Part shown: positions 3,223-20,969 of the stretch, piece after piece | How the letters are laid out: the number at the start of each line of letters is the position of its first letter | How positions within the stretch are numbered: the stretch's first letter is position 1 | NCBI RefSeq assembly: GCF_001306055.1 | Contig: NZ_LGHJ01000007.1 | Span: 66,645 to 98,644 of the forward strand | DNA length: 32,000 nt | Source: Bellilinea caldifistulae | Lineage (GTDB): Bacteria; Chloroflexota; Anaerolineae; Anaerolineales; Anaerolineaceae | Reading direction: 5' to 3' | Position numbers and translations under genes: made by a program | The notes under the pieces: model-generated | What the model saw: the letters and a program-made list of their open reading frames with translations, nothing else | What the model was told of the DNA's origin: nothing | Database searches by the model: none

Positions 3223-3999
3223 TCAAAAATAAACCTTTTTATCGGCGGATAATTTGACTTCTCCACTCTCTCGAATGACACGGGCAGGAACACCGCCAAC
3301 AACTGTATGGGCGGGAACATCCTTTGTAACAACTGCCCCCGCTGCGACAATAGCCCCCTTTTCAACGCGAACCCCGTCCGTGATAATTGCACCCGCACCT
3401 AGCCAGACATCATCCTCTATGGTGATTCCCTCCGCAGTAATTCCCTGATCTACAAAAGGTAATTCGGGATTGCTGAAAACATGATTGACCGCTAACAATT
3501 GTGTGAACGGTGAGGTGAACACGCGATCTCCAATGTTTACACCCCCTTGCCCTCGAATAACACTGTATTCTCCGATAAGACAATTTTTTCCAATTTTTAT
3601 TCCTGAGTTGGGTATTCCGCGAAAATTATAGACATGCAAGATGGCCCCATGCATTACGATGGTGTTCTCGCCAATTTGAATTCCATTGGGGCAAGCATGA
3701 AGATAAGCCCCCTGGTCGAGGTAAACCCCCTGGCCGAGATGGATTTTGTCTGCAAACCGCAAACGTACCCCATTTTCAATTGCCGCCAGACCATCCATGC
3801 GCATAATCAACCGATATAAAACCGCACGAAGTGCGATTCCGATAATTGTCGGCACCCAACCGACACTCAGGTATAAAAATTGTTCCAAAATATAGCGGAA
3901 CGGATTTGAAGCCTGACGGCTCAAATAAAGACGGATTGAATTATTCTTTGAAGGGGTCAAATTTGAATGATGGTTTTTCAAAAAGGCATGCTCCGCCAT
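3223..3999 (-). CDS. Left-handed beta-helix (hexapeptide-repeat) sugar O-acyl/acetyltransferase with an N-terminal membrane anchor
   Basis: 258-aa ORF. Repeated [LIV]-G-x4 hexapeptide units occur ('[13 protein letters not shown]', '[13 protein letters not shown]', '[27 protein letters not shown]', 'VGGVPARVI'). A hydrophobic helix '[21 protein letters not shown]' lies near the N-terminus. Confidence 0.8.
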
Positions 4000-9207: not shown

Positions 9208-9969
9208 CTACCCAGCCAAACTTTTAATGAAAAACCCTGCTTCTTCTAAAGCCAATCGCACTCTCCAAACAATTTCTTTAGCACTCGGAGAATCTCCGTG
9301 AATACACAGTGTGTCCACCTTAAGGGTTGTGTTTGAATTTTCCGATTGGATTGCAATCCCCTCGCTTGCCAAACACACGGCTTGTTGAGCAGCTTTCAGC
9401 GGATCATGGATGATTGAGCCAGCCCAACCGCGTGGCATTAACCTTCCATCTTGAAGATAACCACGCTCTATAAACCCCTCATTTGCCGTTTTCATACCAT
9501 ATTCCAACCCCATTGTTACCAAAACCGACCCGGCCAGACCGACAATGATTAATTCACGGCTAAAACGCCTGACTGCAAGGACAATGGCCTTGGCTACTTG
9601 AGCATCCTCGGCTGCCTGATTGTAAAGCGCTCCATGTGGTTTAACGTGGGTCATTTCTGCGCCACTCGCCCGAACGAAACTCCACAAGGCTCCAATCTGG
9701 TACAAAACCATCGCTTCCACCTCTTCTGGTGCCATTTCCATCTTACGCCGCCCAAAACCTTGCAGGTCCGGATAACCGGGATGTGCGCCGATTGCCAGAT
9801 GATGTTTAACCGCTTTCTCGACCGTTTTTTGGATTACAACTGGATCACCCGCGTGGAAACCACACGCCAGATTAACTGAACTCAGAAAAGGCATCAGATC
9901 TTCGTCCATTCCCAATGTGTACCGTCCAAAACTTTCACCCATGTCGCAATTAAGATCAATCGTTTTCAT
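9208..9969 (-). CDS. pxpA: 5-oxoprolinase subunit A (LamB/YcsF family)
   Basis: 'MKTIDLNCDMGESFG...ACGFHAGDP...GAHPGYPD...VKPHGALYN' matches the PxpA pattern. ATG 9969 overlaps the pxpC stop (ATGA), so the 8 upstream codons of the track ORF are rejected. Confidence 0.85.
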   Translation of the reverse strand: MKTIDLNCDMGESFGRYTLGMDEDLMPFLSSVNLACGFHAGDPVVIQKTVEKAVKHHLAIGAHPGYPDLQGFGRRKMEMAPEEVEAMVLYQIGALWSFVRASGAEMTHVKPHGALYNQAAEDAQVAKAIVLAVRRFSRELIIVGLAGSVLVTMGLEYGMKTANEGFIERGYLQDGRLMPRGWAGSIIHDPLKAAQQAVCLASEGIAIQSENSNTTLKVDTLCIHGDSPSAKEIVWRVRLALEEAGFFIKSLAG

Positions 9970-10949
9970 TGAATAGATCCAGCCCTTTCCCAAAGTTCCG
10001 AGTTGTATGGATCAGTATCCAAAAATTCGAGCCTTCGACTCAAAACCATATACGCTTCTCTTGCTTGTTCAGGAGAAACCGAGCAAAACTGAATCTGACT
10101 TCTGAGAGGTTCGCATTGCGCTAACAGGGGTAAATCTGCCCGTATCACCACACCTATAATTGGATAACCACCGCTGGTTGGAGAATCCGCCATCATGACA
10201 ATTGGTTCTCCATTGGGGGGAATCTGAATTGCCCCAGGGAGCATTCCCAAGGAGATCAAATTGCCCGAGAAATTCACTGTTAATGGTTCGCCTTGCAGTC
10301 TGTACCCGCTTCGGTTAGACGAAGAAGAAATCACATAAGTTTTCTGAAAAAACGAATTATAAACATCTTGATTGAACCAACTGGAGTGCGGCCCAACCAC
10401 AACTCGGATAACAGGATCGGGTTGATAGTATTGAATCGCCTCGATTGAAAAAGAACGATCGCGTATCCCTTCCTGGCCCTTTACGGGTTCGCCAATTTTC
10501 AATTGATCCCCCTTCATGAGAAAGCGCCCAAACCCACCGCCGAAACCACCCACCAGGGATGTTGAGCGCGACCCCATGAGAGGCTTTACATCAATTCCTC
10601 CATGAAATGCAATGACTGCCCACATCCCACCCCCTTCGTGATCAACTTGGACGATTTGACCCGATTGCACTGCGATGGATTGCCACAGGCTCATCAATTG
10701 TCCATCCAGTCGAAGAGAAAACCCTTTCCCACACACGGCCATCAACAAATTTTTCAACGCTCGAAATCGAAAACCGCCCAATCCGATCTCAATACACGCC
10801 AATTCATCTGGATTTCCAACCAGCCTGTTGGCTGCTCGCAAGGCGAATTCGTCCACTGCACCGCTGCGCGGTACTCCAAACTGTCCCCAACCATATCGCC
10901 CCAAATCCTGGATTGTCGAGAAATAGCCGCCGTCTAAAATTTCAATCAT
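9966..10949 (-). CDS. pxpC: 5-oxoprolinase subunit C (KipA / allophanate hydrolase subunit 2 family)
   Basis: 'MIEILDGGYFSTIQDLGRYGWGQFGVPRSGAVD' is the typical family N-terminus, and 'SGGYPIIGVV' is also present. The start at ATG 10949 overlaps the pxpB end by 8 nt. Confidence 0.85.
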   Translation of the reverse strand: MIEILDGGYFSTIQDLGRYGWGQFGVPRSGAVDEFALRAANRLVGNPDELACIEIGLGGFRFRALKNLLMAVCGKGFSLRLDGQLMSLWQSIAVQSGQIVQVDHEGGGMWAVIAFHGGIDVKPLMGSRSTSLVGGFGGGFGRFLMKGDQLKIGEPVKGQEGIRDRSFSIEAIQYYQPDPVIRVVVGPHSSWFNQDVYNSFFQKTYVISSSSNRSGYRLQGEPLTVNFSGNLISLGMLPGAIQIPPNGEPIVMMADSPTSGGYPIIGVVIRADLPLLAQCEPLRSQIQFCSVSPEQAREAYMVLSRRLEFLDTDPYNSELWERAGSIQ

Positions 10950-11619
10950 GGCTAATGATGTCATTCCCAACAGGTATAAATCGTAGTCGGTCCCCTGGTT
11001 TGAGCAAAAAATAGGGAGCTTCTTCAGGATTGAACAATTGCACAGGAGTCCAACCAATCAATTGCCAGCCGCCAGCCGATTCGTTTGGATAAATTCCAGT
11101 TTGATTTCCAGCAATGCCCACCGAGCCGGCTGGTACACGGGTTCGGGGTGAAGAAAGACGCGGGGTGGCAATCCTTGGATTCATTCCGCCAAGATACGGA
11201 AAACCGGGACTAAAACCCATCATGAATACTGTATATTCCCCCTCACTATGAAGGCGGATTACCTCGGCGGGAGTTAAGCGGTTGTATTCAGCCACAAAAT
11301 CCAGATCAGGCCCATAATCTCCCCCATAAATTGTTGGTATCTCTATCATCTTGCCTCGACGATAGAATGCCATCTGTATTCGATCTAGCCCTTCAAATAT
11401 CATATTGTAAAGAGTATCTAAATCAACCTGAAAAGGGTCAAATTCGATAAGCAATGAGGCATAGGCGGGAATCAATTCCCTGATTCCATGGATATTTGAA
11501 AGGCGCAACCATTCACTTAAGTGGTGAACTCGCCGATTCACCTCGAAATCAATTTTATCTCCAAGAATGACCAGCAATCCGTATTCACCGAATGGCTCAA
11601 TGTGAAAATGGGTTCTCAT
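10942..11619 (-). CDS. pxpB: 5-oxoprolinase subunit B (KipI / allophanate hydrolase subunit 1 family)
   Basis: 'FMMGFSPGFPYLGGM...PRLSSPRTRVPAGSVGIAGNQTGIYP...GGWQLIGWTP' is colinear with the E. coli PxpB pattern as I remember it. ATG 11619 is preferred to the TTG at 11664, but no clear SD is present. Confidence 0.8.
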   Translation of the reverse strand: MRTHFHIEPFGEYGLLVILGDKIDFEVNRRVHHLSEWLRLSNIHGIRELIPAYASLLIEFDPFQVDLDTLYNMIFEGLDRIQMAFYRRGKMIEIPTIYGGDYGPDLDFVAEYNRLTPAEVIRLHSEGEYTVFMMGFSPGFPYLGGMNPRIATPRLSSPRTRVPAGSVGIAGNQTGIYPNESAGGWQLIGWTPVQLFNPEEAPYFLLKPGDRLRFIPVGNDIISHD

Positions 11620-11670
11620 GGAATTAAACCCGATTTTGCGTTTGTGTTCAAAACGCGCGATCAAATAGGG

Positions 11671-12933
11671 TCAGCGCCGCACGTGACCGTCACCCACAAT
11701 GACCCACTTGTATGATGTAAGTTCCTTCAATCCCATCGGTCCACGCGCATGAATTTTTTGCGTCGAAACCGCAACCTCGGCACCCAACCCCAATTGTCCT
11801 CCATCAGTAAACCGAGTACTGGCATTAACATAAACCGCGGCCGAGTCCACTCTTTGGATAAACATTTCGATATTTTCTGGGCTGGTGGATAGTATACCAT
11901 CGGAGTGAGCAGTTGAATGCTGTTCAATGTGCTCTATGGCTTCATCTATATTATCCACAATTTTTACCCCAAGCACCAGAGATAACCACTCTGTATCAAA
12001 ATCCCCTTCCCCTGCCACTTGATATACCCTCGATGGTTGTAAATTGAGCAGCTTTAAAACGGATTGATCTAAACGAAACGTCACGCCGGCATTACTCAAT
12101 TGCTCAAAAACCTTGGGTAAAATTGTGCGAGCGATACCACGATGGACAAGCAATGTATCCAAAGCATTACATACCGTTGGTCTTTGAACTTTCGCATTGA
12201 AGATGACCTCAACAGACTTTTCAACATCAGCGCTTTCATCAACAAATAAATGGCAGATTCCGATACCGCCAACGATTACCGGTATCTGGCTATTTTCTCT
12301 ACAAAATTGATGTAATTTTGCACCACCGCGAGGAATAATCAGGTCAACATAGGATGGCATCTTCAGTAAATCCAGTACATAACGACGCTCAGGACTCTCA
12401 ATCAATTGAACTACCTGTGAAGGTAAACCCTGCTTTTGCAATGCCATCTGGATGATTTCTACCAATGCCCGGTTGCTCTCAATCGTTTCACTCCCTCCCC
12501 TAAGAATAACCGCATTACCAGACTTGAGCGCAAGGCAAGAAACATCAATTGTCACATTTGGTCTGGATTCGTAAATCACTCCCAAGACCCCGATTGGTAC
12601 CCGCAGTTTACGAACTTGCAGCCCGTTTGGTAACACTTGTTCATCCAAAATCTCTTTGAGCGGGTCAGGCAGGTCTATGACTCGTTGAATATCGGCTACT
12701 ATTCCTTCCAATCGAGAAGGAGTAATCAATAGGCGGTCTATCATTGCATCTGAAAGACCCTGCTGACGAGCATTTTCCACATCTTTTTCATTGGCCGCCA
12801 ATATATTGGTTTGTTTCTCTAACAACAATTGGCCAATATCCCGTAAAACATTATTTCGTTGTTCGGTCGGGGTTATTGAAAGTATCCTCGCACTACTCCT
12901 GGCTCGTTTTCCGATTTCACTTAAGTCAACCAT
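11671..12933 (-). CDS. proA: Glutamate-5-semialdehyde dehydrogenase (gamma-glutamyl phosphate reductase)
   Basis: 420-aa ORF with full-length ProA-like sequence ('IYESRPNVT', 'AVILRGGSE', catalytic Cys in 'VCNALDTLLVH', 'HSDGI'). It overlaps proB by 8 nt. Confidence 0.95.
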   Translation of the reverse strand: MVDLSEIGKRARSSARILSITPTEQRNNVLRDIGQLLLEKQTNILAANEKDVENARQQGLSDAMIDRLLITPSRLEGIVADIQRVIDLPDPLKEILDEQVLPNGLQVRKLRVPIGVLGVIYESRPNVTIDVSCLALKSGNAVILRGGSETIESNRALVEIIQMALQKQGLPSQVVQLIESPERRYVLDLLKMPSYVDLIIPRGGAKLHQFCRENSQIPVIVGGIGICHLFVDESADVEKSVEVIFNAKVQRPTVCNALDTLLVHRGIARTILPKVFEQLSNAGVTFRLDQSVLKLLNLQPSRVYQVAGEGDFDTEWLSLVLGVKIVDNIDEAIEHIEQHSTAHSDGILSTSPENIEMFIQRVDSAAVYVNASTRFTDGGQLGLGAEVAVSTQKIHARGPMGLKELTSYKWVIVGDGHVRR

Positions 12934-14059
12934 TGCAATTCCTCTCGATGGATTGGATCATCACTAAATTATTGCGGTGGATTACCTCATCCCCGTAGGT
13001 ATACCCTAAAATTGTTTCTATTTCGGTGGATTGGTGTCCGATCAATTTTTCCAAATCACGAGCTGCATAATTGGTAATGCCCATTGCAACCGAACTGGCC
13101 TTTCCGCACAACACTTCAACGGCATCCCCCCGTTCAAAATCCCCCGACACTTTGGTAATCCCAATGGGCAATAAACTCCGTCCTCTAATCAGAGCCAGTT
13201 CTGCACCTGCATCAATGTAAATTTGTCCGTTGCCTTTTGCGGCAGTCAGAATGTATCGTTTTCTTGCTTCTATTTTGTTTAATACAGGTGAGAAATAGGT
13301 ACCGATTGGCTCGTTATTGACTATGCGCAATATATTAAGTGGCACACTTCCGGAAGCGACTACGACAGCACAGCCTGAGCGACGCGCCAGATCAGCTGCT
13401 TGAAGTTTTGTAATCATACCACCTGTACCCACCCCACTAACACTGCCACCAGCCGCAGCCCACATTTCAGGAGGTATTTCAGCGCTCTCGATTCGACCGA
13501 ATAGTCTTGCATGAGGATTTCGACGTGGGTCTTGATCATAAACGCCGTCCTGATCGGTTAGTAAAATCAACAAATCCGCCTCGATCAGACTTGCCACCTG
13601 AGCAGAAAGATTGTCGTTATCCCCAAAACGGATTTCTTCAGTAGCGACGGTGTCATTTTCATTGATGATGGGTATAACAGATTGATGGATCAGCGCCTCA
13701 AGGGTGCTGCGAGCATTCAGGTAACGCCGCCGGTCAGTTAAGTCTGCTCTGGTGAGCAGCACCTGGGCAACTTTTTCTTCGTAGATGGCAAAAAAGCGTT
13801 CGTACATTTCCATCAAACGAGGTTGCCCAATTGCAGCCAGCATTTGTTTCGCGGGTATGAATTTAGGTAATTCAGGGTACCCTAAAGCCTCTCTGCCGGC
13901 GGCGATTGCACCCGAGGAAACCAGCAAAACCTGAATCCCGCTTTGTTTTAATTGACAAATCGCTTTGACCAGATCAATCACCCTCGGGGGCGAAATGTGC
14001 CTTCCACCCGCTGTAAGTGTAGAAGATCCTACTTTTATTACGACTCGCTGATAATTCAT
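12926..14059 (-). CDS. proB: Glutamate 5-kinase with a C-terminal PUA domain
   Basis: 377-aa ORF with 'VIKVGSSTLT', 'LVSSGAIAAG', 'GDNDNLSA' and 'GTGGMITKLQAA'. The C-terminal PUA-like segment is 'GDFERGDAVEV'. Confidence 0.95.
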   Translation of the reverse strand: MNYQRVVIKVGSSTLTAGGRHISPPRVIDLVKAICQLKQSGIQVLLVSSGAIAAGREALGYPELPKFIPAKQMLAAIGQPRLMEMYERFFAIYEEKVAQVLLTRADLTDRRRYLNARSTLEALIHQSVIPIINENDTVATEEIRFGDNDNLSAQVASLIEADLLILLTDQDGVYDQDPRRNPHARLFGRIESAEIPPEMWAAAGGSVSGVGTGGMITKLQAADLARRSGCAVVVASGSVPLNILRIVNNEPIGTYFSPVLNKIEARKRYILTAAKGNGQIYIDAGAELALIRGRSLLPIGITKVSGDFERGDAVEVLCGKASSVAMGITNYAARDLEKLIGHQSTEIETILGYTYGDEVIHRNNLVMIQSIERNCNG

Positions 14060-14074
14060 TGGGCTTGTTCGATC

Positions 14075-15826
14075 CTAAGAGATGAGTTTCAATAAAGCCT
14101 TGGCAGCCATCAAAGGACCTTCCTGTTCCTTACCAGGGACACCCAGTTGGGTTCTTAATTCTCCGACAAACACATTTTGTTTAAATAACTGATCAAAATA
14201 TCGGACAGCCAATTCTTCATGCAAATCCTGATATTGAGGCGGGCCGAAGATATTTGCAAAGTAACTGTGCACCAGACCCTTTGTGTTGGTAGTCCCCTTA
14301 CTCATTACCGCTCCGGAGCGGAACACTTCAAGTGCATCTTGAGCATTTTCAAAACGGCGAATAATCGGATAGTCCTGATCAACCACCTCGTAGTTATTGG
14401 CATACAAGAATACATCCACTGGGTAGCCGCGCATGACTTCATCATACGTCGTAATCGGGATAACTACCCGAGCGTTGGTCTGATCCGGATTCATAATAAT
14501 CGTGCGGTCAATTTGCCCCCACGCATAACCCGACTGAAGGTCATCCAATCTCACAAACGCCCCAATTTCTGTACCAAAACCTGCAACTTTTCCACTCGAG
14601 TCAATTTGAAGAGAGCCCATATCATCTGCAATGGGAATTAATTCTTCAACCTCATCACCGGCTATTTGTCGTAACGCTTCCAGAGTTTCAGATTTTCCAG
14701 CACCTGTGTCTCCTACAATTAACACATTGGATTCCTTGCCTGAGCGCATGCGTATGTGAAAATAAGCCCCATGATAAGGCAGCCGGCCTCTTTTCATCAC
14801 AATAATATTATGCAAGGTCAACACCATTTTCTTTAGATAACCAAAATATCCAAATTCATCTCGACAAGGCACGGCAGCTACCAGCATGTGATTTTCTTCG
14901 TCGTCGTAGAAGATCGTTTGACTTTGACCCTCCATTAATCCGGGGATTTCTGGAACGCCAAACAGGTATATGGCATCGGGTTGCTGAGTAATCTGGTCAC
15001 TCTCGGCCAGCTCAAATAAATTACATAAAGAAAATCCCAGCTCAAAGAAGCGCATCGAAAAATAGATCATGACAACCAGATCACCAACCTTCGCTGGATA
15101 ACAGACCCATTCTTCCGGATCCAAATGCAAGCCCCGTACCGGATTGAAATTTACCCGCTCGAACATGCCTTTTCTTTTGTTTGAAGGTGAGTTGAAAATC
15201 ATTGGCGGGTAAATCATGATTTGTCGGATAATCGAGATGTTTTTTAAGGCGGTATAATCGCCATTCGGGTATGGAATTGGCGCAGGTAATGCAATTGCGC
15301 CAATTTCGACGCCCGCACTCACCTGCCGATAAACACGCGGATGACTTCCGGTAATGTTTTCCTGAATATCCCGATAAGTGCTGCGCACAACATGCATCAA
15401 CCGCTCAACCGTTTCGGCAAAGGTGCGGTAAGGACGCCGATCCATTTCATCCAGCGTTCGATCGCAAATCAGGACACGATGGAGACTCCGCCAGTAGTTG
15501 TATAAATTTTCAACAAAATCATAGATTAAATCGCGTTCGGTCAAGAACTTCCTGGCCGGTTCATGAACTTTAATCACCAAATCGGCGGGTAACTTGACCA
15601 GAAAGCGAAAAGTATCAATCATTTCGGTAATCGCCTTTTCGGAAACCTGACGATTTGGGAACAAATTCAAGAATCGGGATTCTCGCTTTTGTAAATGGCG
15701 TATAAAATCCCACAATACATCCCGGAACAAAGGACTGGTGAGCAGCTCCTCCGAATTCTCACAAATCTTCCCCCGTAATCTCAAAACAACTTTACCATCG
15801 TACATTTGATAGGACAATGCTTCCAT
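14075..15826 (-). CDS. Uncharacterised 583-aa protein: large unknown N-terminal region plus a C-terminal HprK/PEP-carboxykinase-like P-loop kinase core
   Basis: ORF with SD GAGGAG before ATG 15826. The C-terminal motifs are 'LPYHGAYF...VLIVGDTGAGKSETLEAL...IADDMGSL...GTEIGAFVRLDDL'. These parallel HprK/P ('LHG...ITGDSGVGKSETALEL...ADD...EIRGLG') and ATP-PEPCK kinase motifs. I recognise no family for the first roughly 350 aa. Confidence 0.55.
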   Translation of the reverse strand: MEALSYQMYDGKVVLRLRGKICENSEELLTSPLFRDVLWDFIRHLQKRESRFLNLFPNRQVSEKAITEMIDTFRFLVKLPADLVIKVHEPARKFLTERDLIYDFVENLYNYWRSLHRVLICDRTLDEMDRRPYRTFAETVERLMHVVRSTYRDIQENITGSHPRVYRQVSAGVEIGAIALPAPIPYPNGDYTALKNISIIRQIMIYPPMIFNSPSNKRKGMFERVNFNPVRGLHLDPEEWVCYPAKVGDLVVMIYFSMRFFELGFSLCNLFELAESDQITQQPDAIYLFGVPEIPGLMEGQSQTIFYDDEENHMLVAAVPCRDEFGYFGYLKKMVLTLHNIIVMKRGRLPYHGAYFHIRMRSGKESNVLIVGDTGAGKSETLEALRQIAGDEVEELIPIADDMGSLQIDSSGKVAGFGTEIGAFVRLDDLQSGYAWGQIDRTIIMNPDQTNARVVIPITTYDEVMRGYPVDVFLYANNYEVVDQDYPIIRRFENAQDALEVFRSGAVMSKGTTNTKGLVHSYFANIFGPPQYQDLHEELAVRYFDQLFKQNVFVGELRTQLGVPGKEQEGPLMAAKALLKLIS

Positions 15827-15872
15827 TTTTGCTCCTCGCCTGAGTGAAAATTTTGAAATATGTTTATTGCTG

Positions 15873-17177
15873 TCAAATGATCCCCACCCGCTCTTCTAAC
15901 ATCTGAGTCGTCAAGGATTTCGGGCGTTCAATCGGCTTGCCCAATGCGCGTGCCCAAATCGCATGGGCAGTCAGCCCTAATAATCGGCTCACGCCAAACA
16001 AAACGGTGTAAAAATCAACCTCCCGCACCCCGTAATAATACTGCAGACAGCCGTTGATTGCGTCCACATTCGGTCTTGGATTTTTGATCTTCCCATTTTC
16101 TCCCAGAATGGAAGGGGCCAGGCGGTAGACCTGCTTAACCAATTGGAATAATGGATCCTGAGGCAAAAATTGTTCCGCAAATTCCATTTGGGCGGTGAAG
16201 CGTGGATCAGTTACCCTCAATACCGCATGGCCGTAACCAGGGATCACATAGCCCGCCGACAACTGATTGCGAATGTACCCCTCCAATTCTTCGTCTGAGG
16301 GTAACCTTTGAAAATGATCATACACATTCAGCAGCCACCGAATACATTCTTGGTTGGCAAGCCCATGCAACGGGCCAGCCAGGCCATTCATTCCAGCGGC
16401 AGAAGAAAGGTAAATATCGGAGAGCGCTGAACTGACCAGATGGGAGGTATGAGCGCTCACATTGGCGCCTTCGTGGTCAGAATGGATGACAAGATACAAA
16501 CGCATCAATTCCTGATACTCCCAATCCGATCCCTTACCAATCATTTGCGCAAAACTGGCACTCCAATCCAGATTGGGATCTGGGGGTTCTACCTTGCCGT
16601 CCTTGTACTTCCAGCAGTATATGAACGCAGCAATTTGAGGAATTTTCGCCGTCAGATTCAAACTATCTTCTAAATAATATTCCCAATACTGCGATTTCTG
16701 CACGCCTTCCAGGTAAGCTCTGGCAAAGAGGGATTGTGGCTGCAACGCCATAATTGCCTGACTGAAAAGCGTCATCGGATGGGTTTCAGGGGGCATTGAA
16801 CAAATAACGTCCCAAACATATTGGGGTACTTCTGACCGGCAACGCCAGATTTCTTCCACCTCTTCTGCTTCTTTTTGGCTCGGCAATTCGCCGGTCAAGA
16901 GCAAGTGATACAAGCCTCCCGCCAGCGGCATTCGAGAGTTTTTTGCTTTTGGTAACAATGACAAAACCTGAGAAATCGTGTACCCCCTTAGACGAATCCC
17001 CTCATAGGGATCAACATAAGAAATATCACTGATGCTGATTTGCACACCCCGAATACCGCTGAGGATTTGTTCTATGGTTACCTCTCCAACCACAAAGTTG
17101 CTATATTCTTTTTTCAACCGCTGAATCCGCTCCATCCATCGCGGTATCTGTTCTTGAATTTTCTCCTTGATAATCAT
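15873..17177 (-). CDS. gltA: Citrate synthase, eukaryotic (mitochondrial)-like type
   Basis: '[28 protein letters not shown]...[15 protein letters not shown]' and '[17 protein letters not shown]' match the mitochondrial CS signatures rather than bacterial 'GFGHRVYK'. ATG 17177 has GGGAG 5 nt upstream, so the GTG at 17189 is less likely. Confidence 0.9.
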   Translation of the reverse strand: [434 protein letters not shown]

Positions 17178-17199
17178 CCCGACTCCCACTTGTTATGAG

Positions 17200-17946
17200 T
17201 TAATGACTCAAAATTTGAGAAAGAAAAGCCCTACTGCGCTCATGAGCCGGCTGGCTGAAAAACACCTCCGGGGTTGCCCGTTCGATTATTTTTCCATAAT
17301 CCATGAAAATCACCTCATCTGCGGCTGCGCGGGCAAAACCCATCTCGTGTGTTACGACCACCATCGTAATTCCCTCTTCAGCCAGGTTCAGCATCACATC
17401 AAGAACTTCCTTGATCATCTCCGGGTCAAGCGCACTGGTGGGTTCATCAAACAACATAATTTTCGGATCTTGAGCAAGAGCACGGGCAATTGCAACACGC
17501 TGCTGCTGTCCACCCGAAAGTTGAGCCGGATAGAAACGGGCTTTATCCGCAATTCCAACTCGTTCTAGATGATGCATTGCAATTGCTTCGGCTTGAGATT
17601 TTGGAATTTTGCGGACAATTCTTTGCGCCAGGGTCACATTCTCCAAAACGGTTAAATGAGGATAAAGGTTGAAATGTTGGAACACCATACCAATTTGGGA
17701 ACGAATGGCGTTCAATTGTCTTTGATTTCCGGTGATTTTCTGCCGCTCGATCCAAATCTCACCTTCGGTAGGAGTTTCCAAATGATTTATACATCGCAAA
17801 AGGGTGGATTTACCCGAACCGCTCGGGCCGATGATGACAATCACTTGTCCTCTACGAACCGTCAGGTTAACCCCATCCAACGCTACCAAACGCCCAAATT
17901 TTTTCCTGAGATTGATCACTTGAATCATTTCATGCGTTGCGTTCAT
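17200..17946 (-). CDS. Polar amino-acid ABC transporter, ATP-binding protein (GlnQ/HisP-like)
   Basis: Walker A 'GPSGSGKST', signature '[15 protein letters not shown]', Walker B '[11 protein letters not shown]' and H-loop 'VVTHEM' are present. It overlaps the permease gene end. Confidence 0.9.
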
Positions 17947-18817
17947 CTTGTCTTACTCTTCTTTCTATCCATTTGACCAAAGCAGATAACACTACCGTCA
18001 TCATCAAGTAAAGTACTGCAAGGGTGACATAGGCTTCTTGATATTGGAAAGACCTGCCAGCATACAACTTCGCGATTTGGGTAATATCCCTCACTGCCAG
18101 TACCGATACAAGCGAAGAATCTTTCAACATTGAAACGAAATCATTCCCAAGAGCGGGTAAAACATTCCTAATTGCCTGCGGAAGGATAATAAAACGCATT
18201 GCCTGCCAGTACGTCATCCCTTGTGCGCGGGCAGCTTCCATTTGGCCTCTCCCGATGGATTGAATTCCAGCCCGGAAAATCTCCGCCTGAAATGCACCAT
18301 AAGTGACAGAAAGAGCAATAATAGCACGGGTCGTCATTGGCACTGAGCTATTTTCCAGTTGTATCAACGGCTGGGCAATCAATTGCAAGCCTATTTGGGA
18401 AAACCACTCCCCAATCTGGTTCAAGAGACCGACCCCAGCAGGAACACCCACAAAAGCGATGAAAAATATCAGCACCAGCATGGGTATTCCGCGAATTAAC
18501 TCTACATACAAAGTACCCAGGTTTTGAATTACTATATTGTGCGAAATACGCCCCAGGCCAGTAAATAAACCCAAAACCAGGGCAATTCCATATGCAACCA
18601 GTGTTGTCTGAACAGTGACACCAACACCAGCCCGGATGAAGTTGAAGGCATCCTGATAACTGGGACGAGTCAAGATCAAATGCGCCGTCAGAACAAAAAC
18701 CCCAATCAATCCAACAGTCCACCAGGGAAAAAGACGGATCTTTTCTCTTATTTCAGCCCCAGTCAATTGAGGAGAGGCAATTTGCTGTTTTGCTTCAATA
18801 GTCTCTTTCACCGCCAT
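17930..18817 (-). CDS. Polar amino-acid ABC transporter permease (His/Glu/Gln/Arg/opine family)
   Basis: 295-aa hydrophobic ORF. The EAA loop '[34 protein letters not shown]' is present. SD GAGAGGA lies upstream of ATG 18817. Confidence 0.9.
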
Positions 18818-18834
18818 ACCTTTATCCTCTCATT

Positions 18835-18871
18835 GGCGTTGGTTGTAACTTTTTCAGCCACAACCAACGCC
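18835..18871 (-). other. Intercistronic stem-loop between the SBP and permease genes
   Basis: Perfect 12-bp inverted repeat ggcgttggttgt (18835-18846) / acaaccaacgcc (18860-18871) with a 13-nt loop. No U-tract follows on the transcribed strand. Confidence 0.5.
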
Positions 18872-18884
18872 TTATTCCTCAAAA

Positions 18885-19775
18885 CTATTTAATGTCCTCT
18901 TCGGTTACGTTAAAGGATGGGCCAAAATACTTTTCGTTCAACGCCGCCAGTGTGCCATCCGCTTTCATCGATTCAAGAGCCTTATTAACCGGTTCAACCA
19001 ACGGACTACCCTTTGGAAAGACAAATCCAAGTTCATCACTGGAAATCGAAGGGCCGATCAGCTCCAATTTATCTGCGTTTTGACCCGAATACCCCATCCC
19101 GACAATTTCGTCAATAATGACTGCATCCACATCCCCAGCTATTAATGCTTGAATAGCAAAGGGGAATTGCTCAAAAGCCTTGATTCGTCCTTCAGGTAAA
19201 AACTTAACAGCAGTTTCATAATTGGTAGTGCTGACCTGAGTTCCCATGATTAAAGCGTCATTCTGAGCAAATTCCTCAATGCTGGTGAATCGAGACTCAC
19301 CTTTTCGAACCAATAACCGTTGTTGAATCTGAATATATCCTATAGAAAAATCAACAATTTTCTGACGTTCAGGTGTATTGGTAATTCCATCCGCTGCTAC
19401 ATCGAATTGGCCATCCGAAACGGCCTGAATCATTCCATCCCAAGCTGTTTCAACAAATACAGGGATACAATGCAGGCGGGTACAAATTTCTCGCCAGGCA
19501 TCGTAATCCCAGCCTCCCGGTTCACCAGTTTGAATTGAAATGTAGTTAAAGGGAAGATAGGCATTTTCCACAGCAATGGTGACTTCACGGCATCCCAAAT
19601 CCACAATAGCTGTTTCTGCTGTTCCCAAACAACCTTCTGGCTGAGAAGGCGTGTTAATGCTTGGGCTTTCACCAACATCTCCAGTTGAAGTTGAGCTGGT
19701 ATCCGCTGGACTTCCACAAGCGCTCAAGAACAGCACGATTGCCAATACAAAAACCTTAATAAGTGAATTTTTCAT
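18885..19775 (-). CDS. Polar amino-acid ABC transporter substrate-binding lipoprotein (family 3 SBP)
   Basis: Signal peptide with lipobox 'LFLSAC', followed by a low-complexity linker. The PBPb-like body carries '[11 protein letters not shown]', '[16 protein letters not shown]' and '[11 protein letters not shown]'. SD AAAGGAGG precedes ATG 19775. Confidence 0.85.
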
Positions 19776-19873
19776 CTCTGCCTCCTTTGGTTTTCGATAC
19801 TTTATATTATGATATTATTTATCCAATTTCAATAATTGATTTCTAACTCTCGCACCTCCAGGAAAATTGGTTA

Positions 19874-19905
19874 TAAAAAAACCCTCCCGTTTGGGAGGGT
19901 TTTTG
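19874..19905 (-). terminator. Intrinsic terminator inside the 5' leader of the ABC/glutamate operon (structurally bidirectional)
   Basis: Minus-strand RNA reads CAAAAACCCUCCC-AAAC-GGGAGGGUUUUUUU. This gives an 8-bp GC-rich stem (19881-19888 / 19893-19900), a 4-nt loop and a U7 tail (A-run 19874-19880 on plus). Confidence 0.7.
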
Positions 19906-20010
19906 TTCTCAATTAACTGGTGTTAACCATTAAGGCTAAGCGCCAAAAACCGCTCCCTGTTTGTAGGTTCGGTTCTTTGGGGTACGCTTAGCATTGGTTT
20001 GGAAAAACAT
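19906..20010 (-). promoter_or_regulatory. Structured 5' leader RNA (candidate riboswitch/attenuator sensor domain)
   Basis: It lies downstream of the promoter at 20017-20045. A long imperfect rod hairpin spans 19927-19997 (8-bp GCUAAGCG/CGCUUAGC plus 10-bp CCAAA(G)AACCG/CGGUUUUUGG) and a 5-bp mini-hairpin spans 19913-19926. It contains GGGAGCGGUUUUUG, which can alternatively pair with the terminator 5' arm. Confidence 0.4.
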
Positions 20011-20016
20011 AGCAAT

Positions 20017-20045
20017 TTTATAGCACCATTGACAGGATATGTCAA
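20017..20045 (-). promoter_or_regulatory. Sigma70-type promoter driving the leader and ABC/glutamate operon
   Basis: Minus-strand reading is TTGACA (20045..20040), a 17-nt spacer, then TATAAA (20022..20017). Confidence 0.55.
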
Positions 20046-20149
20046 GAACAATTTCTGGCATTTTCCATCCAATTTTTCAGGTGTTTCGCTCAGGCTTATA
20101 CTTTTAAGTACCCGGTCAGATTTCTCCTGACAAAAACCAAAATTTTTCC

Positions 20150-20178
20150 TTGACGGTTATCCGACATACGACTAAAAT
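20150..20178 (+). promoter_or_regulatory. Sigma70-type promoter of rplY
   Basis: TTGACG (20150-20155), a 17-nt spacer, then TAAAAT (20173-20178). It lies about 85 nt upstream of ATG 20263. Confidence 0.6.
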
Positions 20179-20262
20179 AATCCGTCGGCTGTCAAGTCGA
20201 AAATCTAATTCATAGAGCGAGGGTAACCTGTCAAGGTGAGAGGCGCTCGAGGACGGAAAAAA

Positions 20263-20910
20263 ATGGAAAAGCTCGTAATTCAGGCAACTCGGCGATCGGT
20301 AACCGGTAAAAAGGTGGGAGCACTTCGAAGAGAAGGCAAGCTACCCGGCGTACTTTACGGTTATCAAACAGAATCTACTCCAATCCTAATGGAGCTGCGT
20401 GATGCCAGTCGTGTGCTTGCCCACGCATCATCATCTCAATTAATCACAATCAATTTAGATGGAAAAGAATTTGCCACTCTGGTCCGCGAAAAACAACGTG
20501 ATTTCATCAAAGGCACACTGCTCCACGTTGATTTTCAGGTGGTTTCTTTGACGGAAAAGATTCGCACCAATGTTGGCATTGAACTCAGCGGCACATCTCC
20601 TGCCGTCAAAGATTACAACGGCGTTATCGTGCAGGAATTGGATGAGATCGAGGTGGAGGCTCTTCCACAGGAACTGCCCGATAAGTTTGTCGTAGATATT
20701 TCAGGTCTAGCGAAAATTGGTGATGCGATATTTGTGAGGGACTTAACGGTTCCCAGTAGCGTCGAAATCCTCAACGACCCGAATGAAGTGATCGTCATAG
20801 TCACCGGTGCTGCTCCTGAAATCAGCGAGGAAGAAGAAACCGCCGAGGAGATCTCGGAGCCGGAAGTCATCGAACGCGGCAAGAAAGAAGAAGTGGACAT
20901 CGAAGACTAA
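20263..20910 (+). CDS. rplY: 50S ribosomal protein bL25, long Ctc (general stress protein) form
   Basis: 'MEKLVIQATRRSVTGKKVGALRREGKLPGVLYG' is the L25 N-terminal pattern, followed by the second beta-barrel domain and an acidic tail 'EISEEEETAEEISEPE'. ATG 20263 has GAGGA 9 nt upstream, so the 9-codon extension from 20236 is rejected. Confidence 0.9.
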   Translation: MEKLVIQATRRSVTGKKVGALRREGKLPGVLYGYQTESTPILMELRDASRVLAHASSSQLITINLDGKEFATLVREKQRDFIKGTLLHVDFQVVSLTEKIRTNVGIELSGTSPAVKDYNGVIVQELDEIEVEALPQELPDKFVVDISGLAKIGDAIFVRDLTVPSSVEILNDPNEVIVIVTGAAPEISEEEETAEEISEPEVIERGKKEEVDIED

Positions 20911-20933: not shown

Positions 20934-20969
20934 GAGCAGCACAAATCGGTTTTGTGCTGCTCTTTTATT
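20934..20969 (+). terminator. Intrinsic terminator of rplY
   Basis: 12-bp stem gagcagcacaaa (20934-20945) / tttgtgctgctc (20951-20962), followed by TTTTATT. Confidence 0.8.

Follow-up and report, generated by a model that had tools for sequence, protein, structure and literature searches.

The classical leader-peptide attenuators are those of the trp, his, leu, thr and pheA operons of Proteobacteria (Rfam families RF00513, RF00514, RF00512, RF00506 and RF01859). Leader-peptide attenuators whose open reading frame (ORF) is leaderless have been described for trp, ilvBNC and leu in Corynebacterium glutamicum (PMC3890552, PMC11857589), and leaderless regulatory upstream ORFs (uORFs) include the poly-Cys uORFs of mycobacteria (bioRxiv 10.1101/834739) and those of Deinococcus deserti (PMC4007540). 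In Firmicutes, His leaders and His T-boxes control his operons as well as hisXYZ, which encodes a histidine ATP-binding cassette (ABC) transporter (PMC9413887), and in the speF leader of Salmonella and E. coli the paired Arg codons of orf34 report arginine supply (PMC6386406). Here we analyse a leader of about 135 nucleotides (nt) from Bellilinea caldifistulae, situated on the minus strand of a stretch of 32,000 nt (hereafter the window; contig NZ_LGHJ01000007.1, positions 66,645 to 98,644) and directly upstream of a ten-gene operon that begins with the genes of an amino-acid ABC transporter. This leader is a cis-regulatory element conserved across a bacterial family, its presence upstream of the orthologous gene throughout that family placing it beyond chance, and we consider it probable that it acts as a ribosome-mediated (leader-peptide) transcription attenuator with a leaderless leader ORF.

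Conservation of the leader, its reading frame and its hairpins

Alignment of 14 orthologous binding proteins led to 80 Anaerolineaceae loci from species-representative genomes, in which the gene was set on the plus strand. A single-sequence nhmmer search with the window leader gave matches directly upstream of the binding-protein gene in 22 loci, a profile search extended this to 67 of the 80, and a covariance model matched 49 at E < 0.01. The 13 loci that the profile did not match comprise a divergent copy recognised by eye (L068), one locus without upstream DNA (L067) and 11 with a different upstream region, so that the leader is present in 68 of the 79 loci with upstream DNA. It always lies immediately 5' of the same gene and on the same strand in the loci examined, and the covariance model matches the window at one copy only. 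Anaerolinea thermophila and Thermanaerothrix daxensis are among the species that have this leader. Counts of ORFs, terminators and antiterminators given below were taken over 66 homologous leaders.

The promoter, TTGAC(A)-17-TATAAA, is found in nearly all of these leaders. In the window the ATG sits six nt past the -10 hexamer (Table 1), and a first scoring of 63 leaders put the corresponding distance at 6-10 nt in 58; in the other five the scorer had chosen an upstream in-frame ATG, and the next in-frame ATG lies 9-10 nt past the -10. No Shine-Dalgarno (SD) sequence is present upstream of the leader ATG. Because the ATG lies 6-10 nt past the -10, the AUG would fall at or within ~3 nt of the expected start site, and the window ORF is thus probably leaderless, with its AUG at the predicted +1.

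An in-frame ORF is present in 66/66 leaders (10-36 codons, typically 23-30). Its frame is open across the first 20 codons in 62 of them, as against 16 and 11 for the other two frames, and stops within these 20 codons number 4 in the ORF frame as against 87 and 80 in the others. Sequence variability shows a weak codon-like periodicity, clearest upstream of the rod hairpin described below, and the N-terminal codons carry U at the second position, i.e. they encode hydrophobic residues.

When the peptides are aligned on an invariant AAG, they follow the pattern M-x6-9-(A/P)-K-(R/H)-(H...)-(H/R/K/P)-(K/P). Of 63 non-redundant peptides, 61 have this anchoring Lys, and the codon after it encodes Arg (35) or His (23). 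Examples of the motif are AKRHHP, AKHHHP, PKHHRK, KHHKH, AKRLHAH and AKRQPKPQPP, the window having AKRTPKNR. From this Lys to the fifth codon beyond it (K..K+5), Lys, His and Arg make up 62% of residues and His alone 20%, compared with 11.6% and 1.8% in the operon's own proteins. A check for tandem or clustered codons returned a Lys-(Arg/His) pair followed by His/Arg/Lys/Pro-rich codons, without a run of any single amino acid. An earlier note, made from the letters of the window, had stated that the peptide is not enriched for any amino acid; this holds for the window peptide but not for the family, with its cluster of basic codons.

Two divergent leaders, L072 (~3568-3719) and L068, have a 10-codon ORF reading MM(S/A)RLELKR(H/P)-stop, which leaves Lys-Arg as the minimum in common. 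Since these ORFs stop where the others carry the basic-codon cluster, a terminating ribosome would occupy the presumed stall position. In L024 (~3730 onward) the ORF, MLFVVVCQKHQHHPAH..., passes the terminator without a stop and reaches 74 codons, which may be due to an assembly indel or to a truly different arrangement.

The minimum free energy (MFE) fold of the window leader consists of a rod hairpin, a mini-hairpin and a terminator, and has an energy of -50 kcal/mol, against an average of -29.7 +/- 3.5 kcal/mol for dinucleotide shuffles (z = -5.83; 0/200 shuffles fold as well). For comparison with relatives, the rod was aligned from a hand-annotated seed and a covariance model. In the resulting alignment of 36 leaders, 88.7% of rod and terminator cells are paired versus 80.5% when shuffled, and double changes occur in 16 of the 24 pairs (5/8 in the basal stem of the rod, 7/10 in the terminator). 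The covariation score is 0.338 versus 0.197, a value reached by 0/500 shuffles, and slid partners pair in only 36-64% of cells. A MAFFT alignment, which is not fitted to structure, gave a similar picture for basal stem and terminator (93.5% paired; slid partners 39-63%). RNAalifold, run on a plain MAFFT alignment of 22 leaders, recovered the terminator alone, because the rod is out of register between clades.

Across the homologous leaders the terminator stem is nearly always CC(C/U)U(C/U)CC / GG(G/A)AGG, and the apical hairpin of the rod is a near copy of it. A GC-rich stem followed by a U-run of >=3 is found in 65 of the 66 leaders; in L060 the stem, placed by hand, is followed by UUAUUAUUU. 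In the window the terminator reads (AAAAA)CCCUCCC-AAAC-GGGAGGG and then U7. The rod itself is a single irregular hairpin whose upper part varies between clades in length and sequence, and whose conserved unpaired bases coincide with the Lys-Arg/His-His codons. The promoter, the rod and the terminator had all been read in this way by the earlier note, which also proposed that conservation and covariation be sought in relatives. The promoter is as it described and is conserved; the rod is reproduced by the MFE fold and shows compensatory changes, as does the terminator, whose end had been placed one base too far, at 19874 instead of 19875. The mini-hairpin is likewise present in the window fold, but its segment varies among homologues in sequence and fold and is not conserved; it is probably only a spacer.

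A consensus scanner overlooked both the promoter and the terminator of the window leader, the former because its last base is A, not T, and the latter because an A/U extension of the stem consumes the T-run; both misses are artefacts and no evidence of absence. Throughout the family, with variable loops, the terminator 5' arm (CCUCC/CCUUCC) resembles the anti-SD of 16S ribosomal RNA, and the terminator 3' arm and the apical 3' arm of the rod (GGAGG/GGAAGG) resemble an SD. This likeness may result from four mutually constrained segments, or may mark an SD-like pause site within the ORF.

Some loci depart from the general arrangement. L036, L057 and L076, which lack the leader, share another upstream block, GTTACCCG(C/G)TTTT...AGATTGACAA...TATACT, which suggests that in GC-richer relatives the attenuator has been replaced by a different promoter/operator arrangement. 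L045 has a weak covariance-model match (L045:6549-6664, plus strand, E = 0.005) just past the ATPase gene, which ends in GAGCCCUCCGGUCGGAGGGCUUUUU; it may represent either a further attenuator-like element or the terminator of the operon end, built on the same CCCUCC/GGAGGG stem.

Antiterminator pairing and the predicted position of the ribosome

The segments of the leader can be numbered 1 to 4, the rod being formed by regions 1:2 and the terminator by 3:4. In the window, region 2 is complementary to region 3 with one bulged C, and according to RNAduplex this antiterminator pairing is worth -20.8 kcal/mol (z = -5.6 against a shuffled partner), compared with -13.6 kcal/mol for the core stem of the terminator. 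In the relatives, the RNA 3' of the putative stall site was searched for pairing with the terminator 5' arm plus 10 nt of flank. The best duplex begins 21-37 nt 3' of the Lys codon in 66/66 leaders, in or beside the apical 3' arm, and usually extends into a second helix that is specific to the clade (GGUUUUUGG:CAAAAACC in the window, CUUUCGC:GCGAAAG in L017, CGGGCG:CCGCCC in L018).

These duplexes are stronger than those with shuffled partners (mean z -2.9; z < -2 in 55/66 leaders), and the complementarity tracks lineage: replacing the native partner by one from an unrelated leader costs 3.75 kcal/mol, and once row and column effects are removed by double-centring the diagonal excess is -3.5 kcal/mol (z = -10.9). 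In a thinned set of 44 sequences the native-partner z is -8.2, and 0/5000 permutations are as good. Three mutually exclusive structures controlling read-through, as the earlier note had envisaged from the region 2/3 complementarity, are thus supported by folding, by swapped partners and, for rod and terminator, by covariation.

The position of the control codons can be set against this pairing. When the A site of a ribosome is on K+1 to K+4, the protected RNA should reach to about +15 to +24 nt, counted from the Lys codon. The basal, middle and apical helices would then have their 5' strands covered, and the antiterminator strand would be left free. We folded transcripts cut before the terminator 3' arm, to approximate the point at which the switch is decided. 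With the RNA free, the terminator 5' arm was paired upstream at 0% in the window (family mean 0.59); with a ribosome stalled at K+1 or K+3 it was paired upstream at 100% (family mean 0.89-0.90); and with the ribosome at the stop codon at 0% (family mean 0.51). The control codons are thus placed as the attenuation model predicts, in the window and in the family average of these masked folds.

The proposed trigger, the candidate amino acids and other explanations

In the mechanism that we favour, transcription from a strong constitutive sigma-70-type promoter would begin on the AUG of the 24-codon ORF or no more than a few bases away. In the absence of a ribosome, and equally when one proceeds as far as the UAG, which lies within the rod's 3' strand, region 2 (GGGAGCGGUUUUUG) would be sequestered by region 1 or covered by the ribosome; the terminator 3:4 would then form and transcription would end at about 19875, yielding the ~135-nt RNA. 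Were the matching charged transfer RNA (tRNA) scarce, the ribosome would stall on the Lys-Arg-(Thr)-Pro-Lys-(Asn)-Arg codons and cover region 1, region 2 would pair with region 3 (CAAAAACCCUCCC) before the terminator 3' arm is made, and RNA polymerase would read through into the ten-gene operon. The earlier note had offered the ORF beginning at the predicted +1 as an alternative trigger; given the conserved AUG and open frame, it is the trigger that the evidence favours.

The amino acid sensed is the weakest link of the argument. Our guess is that the signal consists of basic residues: Arg/Lys and perhaps Pro in the window, and His in relatives whose operon comprises the transporter only. The leaders of most transporter-only operons add His-His. 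Over codons K..K+9, leaders of operons with citrate synthase and/or proBA contain less His than those of transporter-only operons (0.70 vs 1.76; Mann-Whitney p = 3e-4), more Pro (1.61 vs 0.71; p = 1e-3) and more Arg (1.70 vs 0.94; p = 4e-4), in a comparison that ignores phylogeny and in which each group comprises several clades by eye. ProBA makes glutamate-5-semialdehyde, a proline precursor that can also feed ornithine and arginine, and citrate synthase and 5-oxoprolinase feed glutamate. From these pathway links we infer that a leader sensing Arg/Pro(/Lys) would be physiologically sensible.

Besides this neglect of phylogeny, several points weigh against attenuation by a stalled ribosome. 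The window peptide has no run of a single amino acid but 3 Lys, 2 Arg and 1 Pro, so that the signal is not obvious. The conserved Lys-Arg/His codons coincide with the conserved basal stem (UAAGCG), and constraint on the RNA could mimic conservation of codons. Leaderless genes, which in Chloroflexi have a TAtaaT -10 signal, have been estimated to form a small minority there, at ~5% (PMC3160421). When the 10-pair core of the antiterminator is scored in fixed columns, 72.2% is paired, equal to shuffles, and there is no covariation; the covariation in relatives that the earlier note had proposed to look for thus appears as an advantage of native over swapped partners, and not in the core, which is conserved. 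The core would seem to be held by conservation, with the co-variation coming from flanks that do not align column-wise, and a frozen core is plausible if four segments (1~3, 2~4) must remain mutually complementary; we retain the antiterminator because the thermodynamic and swapped-partner tests support it despite the fixed-column null. Lastly, in full-length equilibrium folding the very stable terminator of the window persists with region 1 masked; across the family, the terminator disappears from 31-32 of 66 leaders when the stall mask is applied and from 10/66 otherwise. The survival of the terminator under the mask implies that the switch must be co-transcriptional or kinetic, as in the classical cases.

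The three-structure logic would hold whatever the trigger, and the rod (UAAGCR...CAUCAU / GGAGCGG) might instead bind a metabolite or an RNA-binding protein that stabilises or melts it and so chooses between antiterminator and terminator, the ORF being incidental. Such a riboswitch or protein-controlled attenuator would suit the peaks of base conservation, UAAGC and GGAGCGG, which lie within and next to the rod, the conservation of the basal stem in sequence and not in pairing alone, and the want of a single-amino-acid codon run. A pure RNA sensor offers no reason, however, for an AUG at the predicted +1 in every leader or for a frame that is kept open far more often than the other two; moreover, the rod is a single irregular hairpin with an upper part that differs between clades, neither the window nor eight diverse homologues match Rfam at threshold, and the neighbouring L25 gene is no candidate for the binder, being adjacent in the closest relatives only. 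Nothing specifically supports this option, and we regard it as unlikely. A different possibility leaves the RNA switch unchanged and alters the stall: the peptide K-(R/H)-H-(H/R/K)-(P/K) would respond to a small molecule, for example a basic amino acid or ornithine, by arresting the ribosome from within its exit tunnel, as SpeFL and TnaC do. The SpeFL nascent chain senses ornithine, and the conserved part of the leader peptides is a short His/Arg-rich motif that we take to resemble the HIRRxxH ornithine-sensing motif of SpeFL. The 10-codon variants, in which the stop follows directly after K-R-(H/P), are TnaC-like, and the hydrophobic N-terminal residues would also fit. The motif is loose, though (KRTPKNR in the window has no His), it is preceded by a variable 7 to 13 residues, plain codon starvation explains the same data more simply, and the logic would be inverted, with an inducer turning on an operon for uptake and biosynthesis; sensing by the nascent peptide is for these reasons quite improbable.

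Least probable of all, and in our view hardly credible, is an independent small gene, encoding a ~135-nt small RNA or a 24-residue protein, with the operon driven from the promoter-like TTGAAA-17-TAATAT downstream of the terminator. The leader is a complete promoter-to-terminator unit, the second promoter-like site does lie between terminator and binding-protein gene in the window and its closest relatives, and in other bacteria action in trans is possible both for leader peptides and for terminated attenuator RNAs (PMC6614838, PMC7298713). Yet wherever the element occurs it directly precedes the same gene on the same strand, its peptide is poorly conserved beyond Lys-Arg/His and varies from 10 to 36 residues, and the region 2/3 complementarity would have no role in a free-standing gene. 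Spacing to the first gene argues likewise. In L016, L032, L034, L048, L049 and L058 only 28-44 nt separate the terminator stem from the SD and ATG of the first gene (36 and 28 nt in L044 and L040 by a cruder first-long-ORF measure), which in three clades leaves no room for a second promoter; a first-long-ORF count of 17/66 leaders at <=46 nt was inflated by in-frame upstream starts, and these six are the clear cases of an SD-aware recount. The Bellilinea clade retains UGGAGG where the short-spacer relatives carry the SD of the binding protein, followed by ~65 extra AT-rich bases that hold TTGAAA-17-TAATAT. This block looks like an insertion, and it may provide a secondary promoter in the window genome.

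Among these readings we thus keep to ribosome-mediated attenuation. A broader proposition concerns the family: that these leaders are a re-programmable attenuator chassis, or else a K-(R/H)-H-x-(P/K) nascent-chain sensor in the manner of SpeFL and TnaC, for which we see only a slim chance. As a chassis, the leader may have had its control codons swapped as the operon gained citrate synthase and proBA, being His-rich in transporter-only relatives and Pro/Arg-rich here.

Operon context and comparison with described systems

Table 1. Features of the leader and its surroundings in the window (positions in the window; rod and antiterminator sequences as RNA, minus strand)
Feature	Position	Strand	Remarks
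-35 hexamer TTGACA	20040..20045	-	read from sequence; followed by 17-nt spacer
Extended -10 TGcTATAAA	20017..20025	-	TATAAA 20022-20017, TG 20025-20024; read from sequence
Leader ORF MFFQTNAKRTPKNRTYKQGAVFGA, 24 codons + UAG	19936..20010	-	ATG 20010-20008, stop 19938-19936
Candidate control codons AAG CGU ACC CCA AAG AAC CGA (K8 R9 T P K N R14)	19969..19989	-	rod 5' strand
Rod hairpin, regions 1:2 (anti-antiterminator)	19927..19997	-	MFE fold and homologue folds; apical part ends in GGGAG
Rod basal stem GCUAAGCG : CGCUUAGC	19992-19985 : 19942-19935	-	flanked by CCA/UGG
Rod upper stem CCAAAGAACCG : CGGUUUUUGG		-	read from sequence
Region 2, antiterminator 5' strand GGGAGCGGUUUUUG	19944..19957	-	near copy of terminator 3' arm + U-tract
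Region 3, terminator 5' arm + flank CAAAAACCCUCCC	19893..19905	-	antiterminator 3' strand
Mini-hairpin, 5 bp	19913..19926	-	between rod and terminator; MFE fold
Intrinsic terminator AAAAACCCUCCC-AAAC-GGGAGGGUUUUUUU + U7, regions 3:4	19875..19905	-	sequence and fold
UGGAGG	19855..19860	-	15-20 nt past terminator
Promoter-like TTGAAA-17-TAATAT	19804..19832	-	within extra AT-rich spacer; closest relatives only
SD AAGGAGG + ATG of first structural gene	19773..19787	-	family-3 solute-binding lipoprotein
Family-3 solute-binding lipoprotein gene	18885-19775	-	first operon gene
Controlled 10-gene operon	9208..19775	-	gaps <=67 nt or overlaps between genes; pxpA ends at 9208
Gene of 583-residue protein	14075-15826	-	between citrate synthase and proB
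L25/Ctc gene	20236-20910	+	long form
Terminator of L25/Ctc gene	20934-20962	+	clean

The operon downstream of the leader (Table 1) runs in the order binding protein, permease, ATPase, citrate synthase, a P-loop protein without family match, proB, proA, pxpB, pxpC and pxpA. Among the 80 relative loci the three ABC genes are always together, and in 22 they are followed by citrate synthase, a protein of the 583-residue type and/or proBA. Over 87% of its length the binding protein shows 100% identity to a protein of B. caldifistulae, which places the source in the Anaerolineae (Chloroflexota). Its substrate is not settled by family scores: the NCBIfam Lys/Arg/Orn, cystine and Gln families, to which it is closest, score similarly and none reaches its cut-off. 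Among solved structures the protein is nearest to the reconstructed ancestors AncCDT-1 and AncQR, together with GlnBP and ArtJ. These resemblances would fit a cationic or amide amino acid, without being diagnostic.

The 583-residue protein has no sequence match in Pfam, NCBIfam or PDB, its sole feature being a weak P-loop (Walker A) signal at residues ~364-390, and it recurs beside citrate synthase or ABC genes in L001-L003, L038, L040 and L049. Upstream of the leader the divergent neighbours are the genes for L25/Ctc and for a GGDEF/EAL protein. The L25/Ctc protein is of the long, general stress type with a TL5 C-terminal domain, and its gene has a terminator of its own. As a regulator or rod-binding protein it was rejected, since it adjoins the leader only in the closest relatives (L001-L003).

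The earlier note had recognised no known motif in the leader, and the databases bear this out. Rfam at gathering thresholds gave nothing in the 32-kb window, and a tRNA only in eight homologous loci. Permissive matches to the Leu and Phe leaders and to small RNAs were rejected as memberships, being sub-threshold and mostly confined to the terminator (Leu_leader 29.7 bits vs a threshold of 50; Phe_leader 34.1 vs 55, mostly terminator), and His_leader was not listed. The T-box model (RF00230) had no match even at E <= 10 over 19700-20300, and the leader is only ~135 nt long. A full-text literature search on leader-peptide attenuation in Chloroflexi, which is limited evidence, found no such leader described. 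In Rfam at gathering threshold, for the window and eight relatives, and in this limited search, no described cis-regulatory RNA thus corresponds to the leader.

With 68 orthologous leaders, the family would offer a concrete example of classical attenuation, and would carry the leaderless variety of leader-peptide attenuation outside Actinobacteria and Deinococcus. The model predicts that the speed of translation over a few Lys/Arg/Pro codons governs an operon that combines amino-acid import with citrate synthase, proBA and 5-oxoprolinase. If codon content has shifted between lineages, as it appears to have, this would be a natural experiment in the evolution of attenuator specificity. For annotation, the leader draws attention to two features that gene callers and operon predictors will overlook, a small unannotated ORF and a premature terminator.

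Compared with the trp, his, leu, thr and pheA attenuators of Proteobacteria, the leader has the same short ORF, there translated, the same four segments with mutually exclusive 1:2, 2:3 and 3:4 pairings, an intrinsic terminator shortly ahead of the first gene, candidate control codons within segment 1 and a stop inside or beside segment 2. It differs in belonging to no Rfam leader family by sequence, in an ORF that has no SD and starts at the predicted +1, in control codons that form a mixed basic cluster, in first controlled genes that encode an importer and not biosynthetic enzymes, and in its host phylum, Chloroflexota. In the leaderless leaders of Actinobacteria and Deinococcus the transcript likewise opens with the AUG of a regulatory ORF whose translation governs the operon; those peptides, from other phyla, hold clear cognate runs (Trp; Ile/Val/Leu; Cys), unlike the one described here, and the mycobacterial Cys uORFs are not described as using a classical intrinsic terminator.

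As with the His leaders of Firmicutes, amino-acid transport genes would be under RNA-level control, and many of the relatives' leaders have 2-3 consecutive His (KRHHP, KHHHP, KHHRK), near the '3-5 His in a row' of the former (PMC9413887). The window peptide has no His, however, the universal codons are Lys-Arg/His, the ORF is probably leaderless, and the leaders are not homologous to those of Firmicutes. With speF orf34 the leader shares a small upstream ORF in which progress of the ribosome would refold the messenger RNA downstream, and a basic His/Arg-rich motif (PMC6386406); the speF leader, in contrast, uses Rho-dependent termination and RNase G, its ORF has an SD, and it has no intrinsic terminator/antiterminator pair. 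The leader of B. caldifistulae and its relatives is therefore probably a familiar type of control in an undescribed and widely conserved form, distinguished by its phylum, its leaderless design and its mixed, apparently evolvable control codons.

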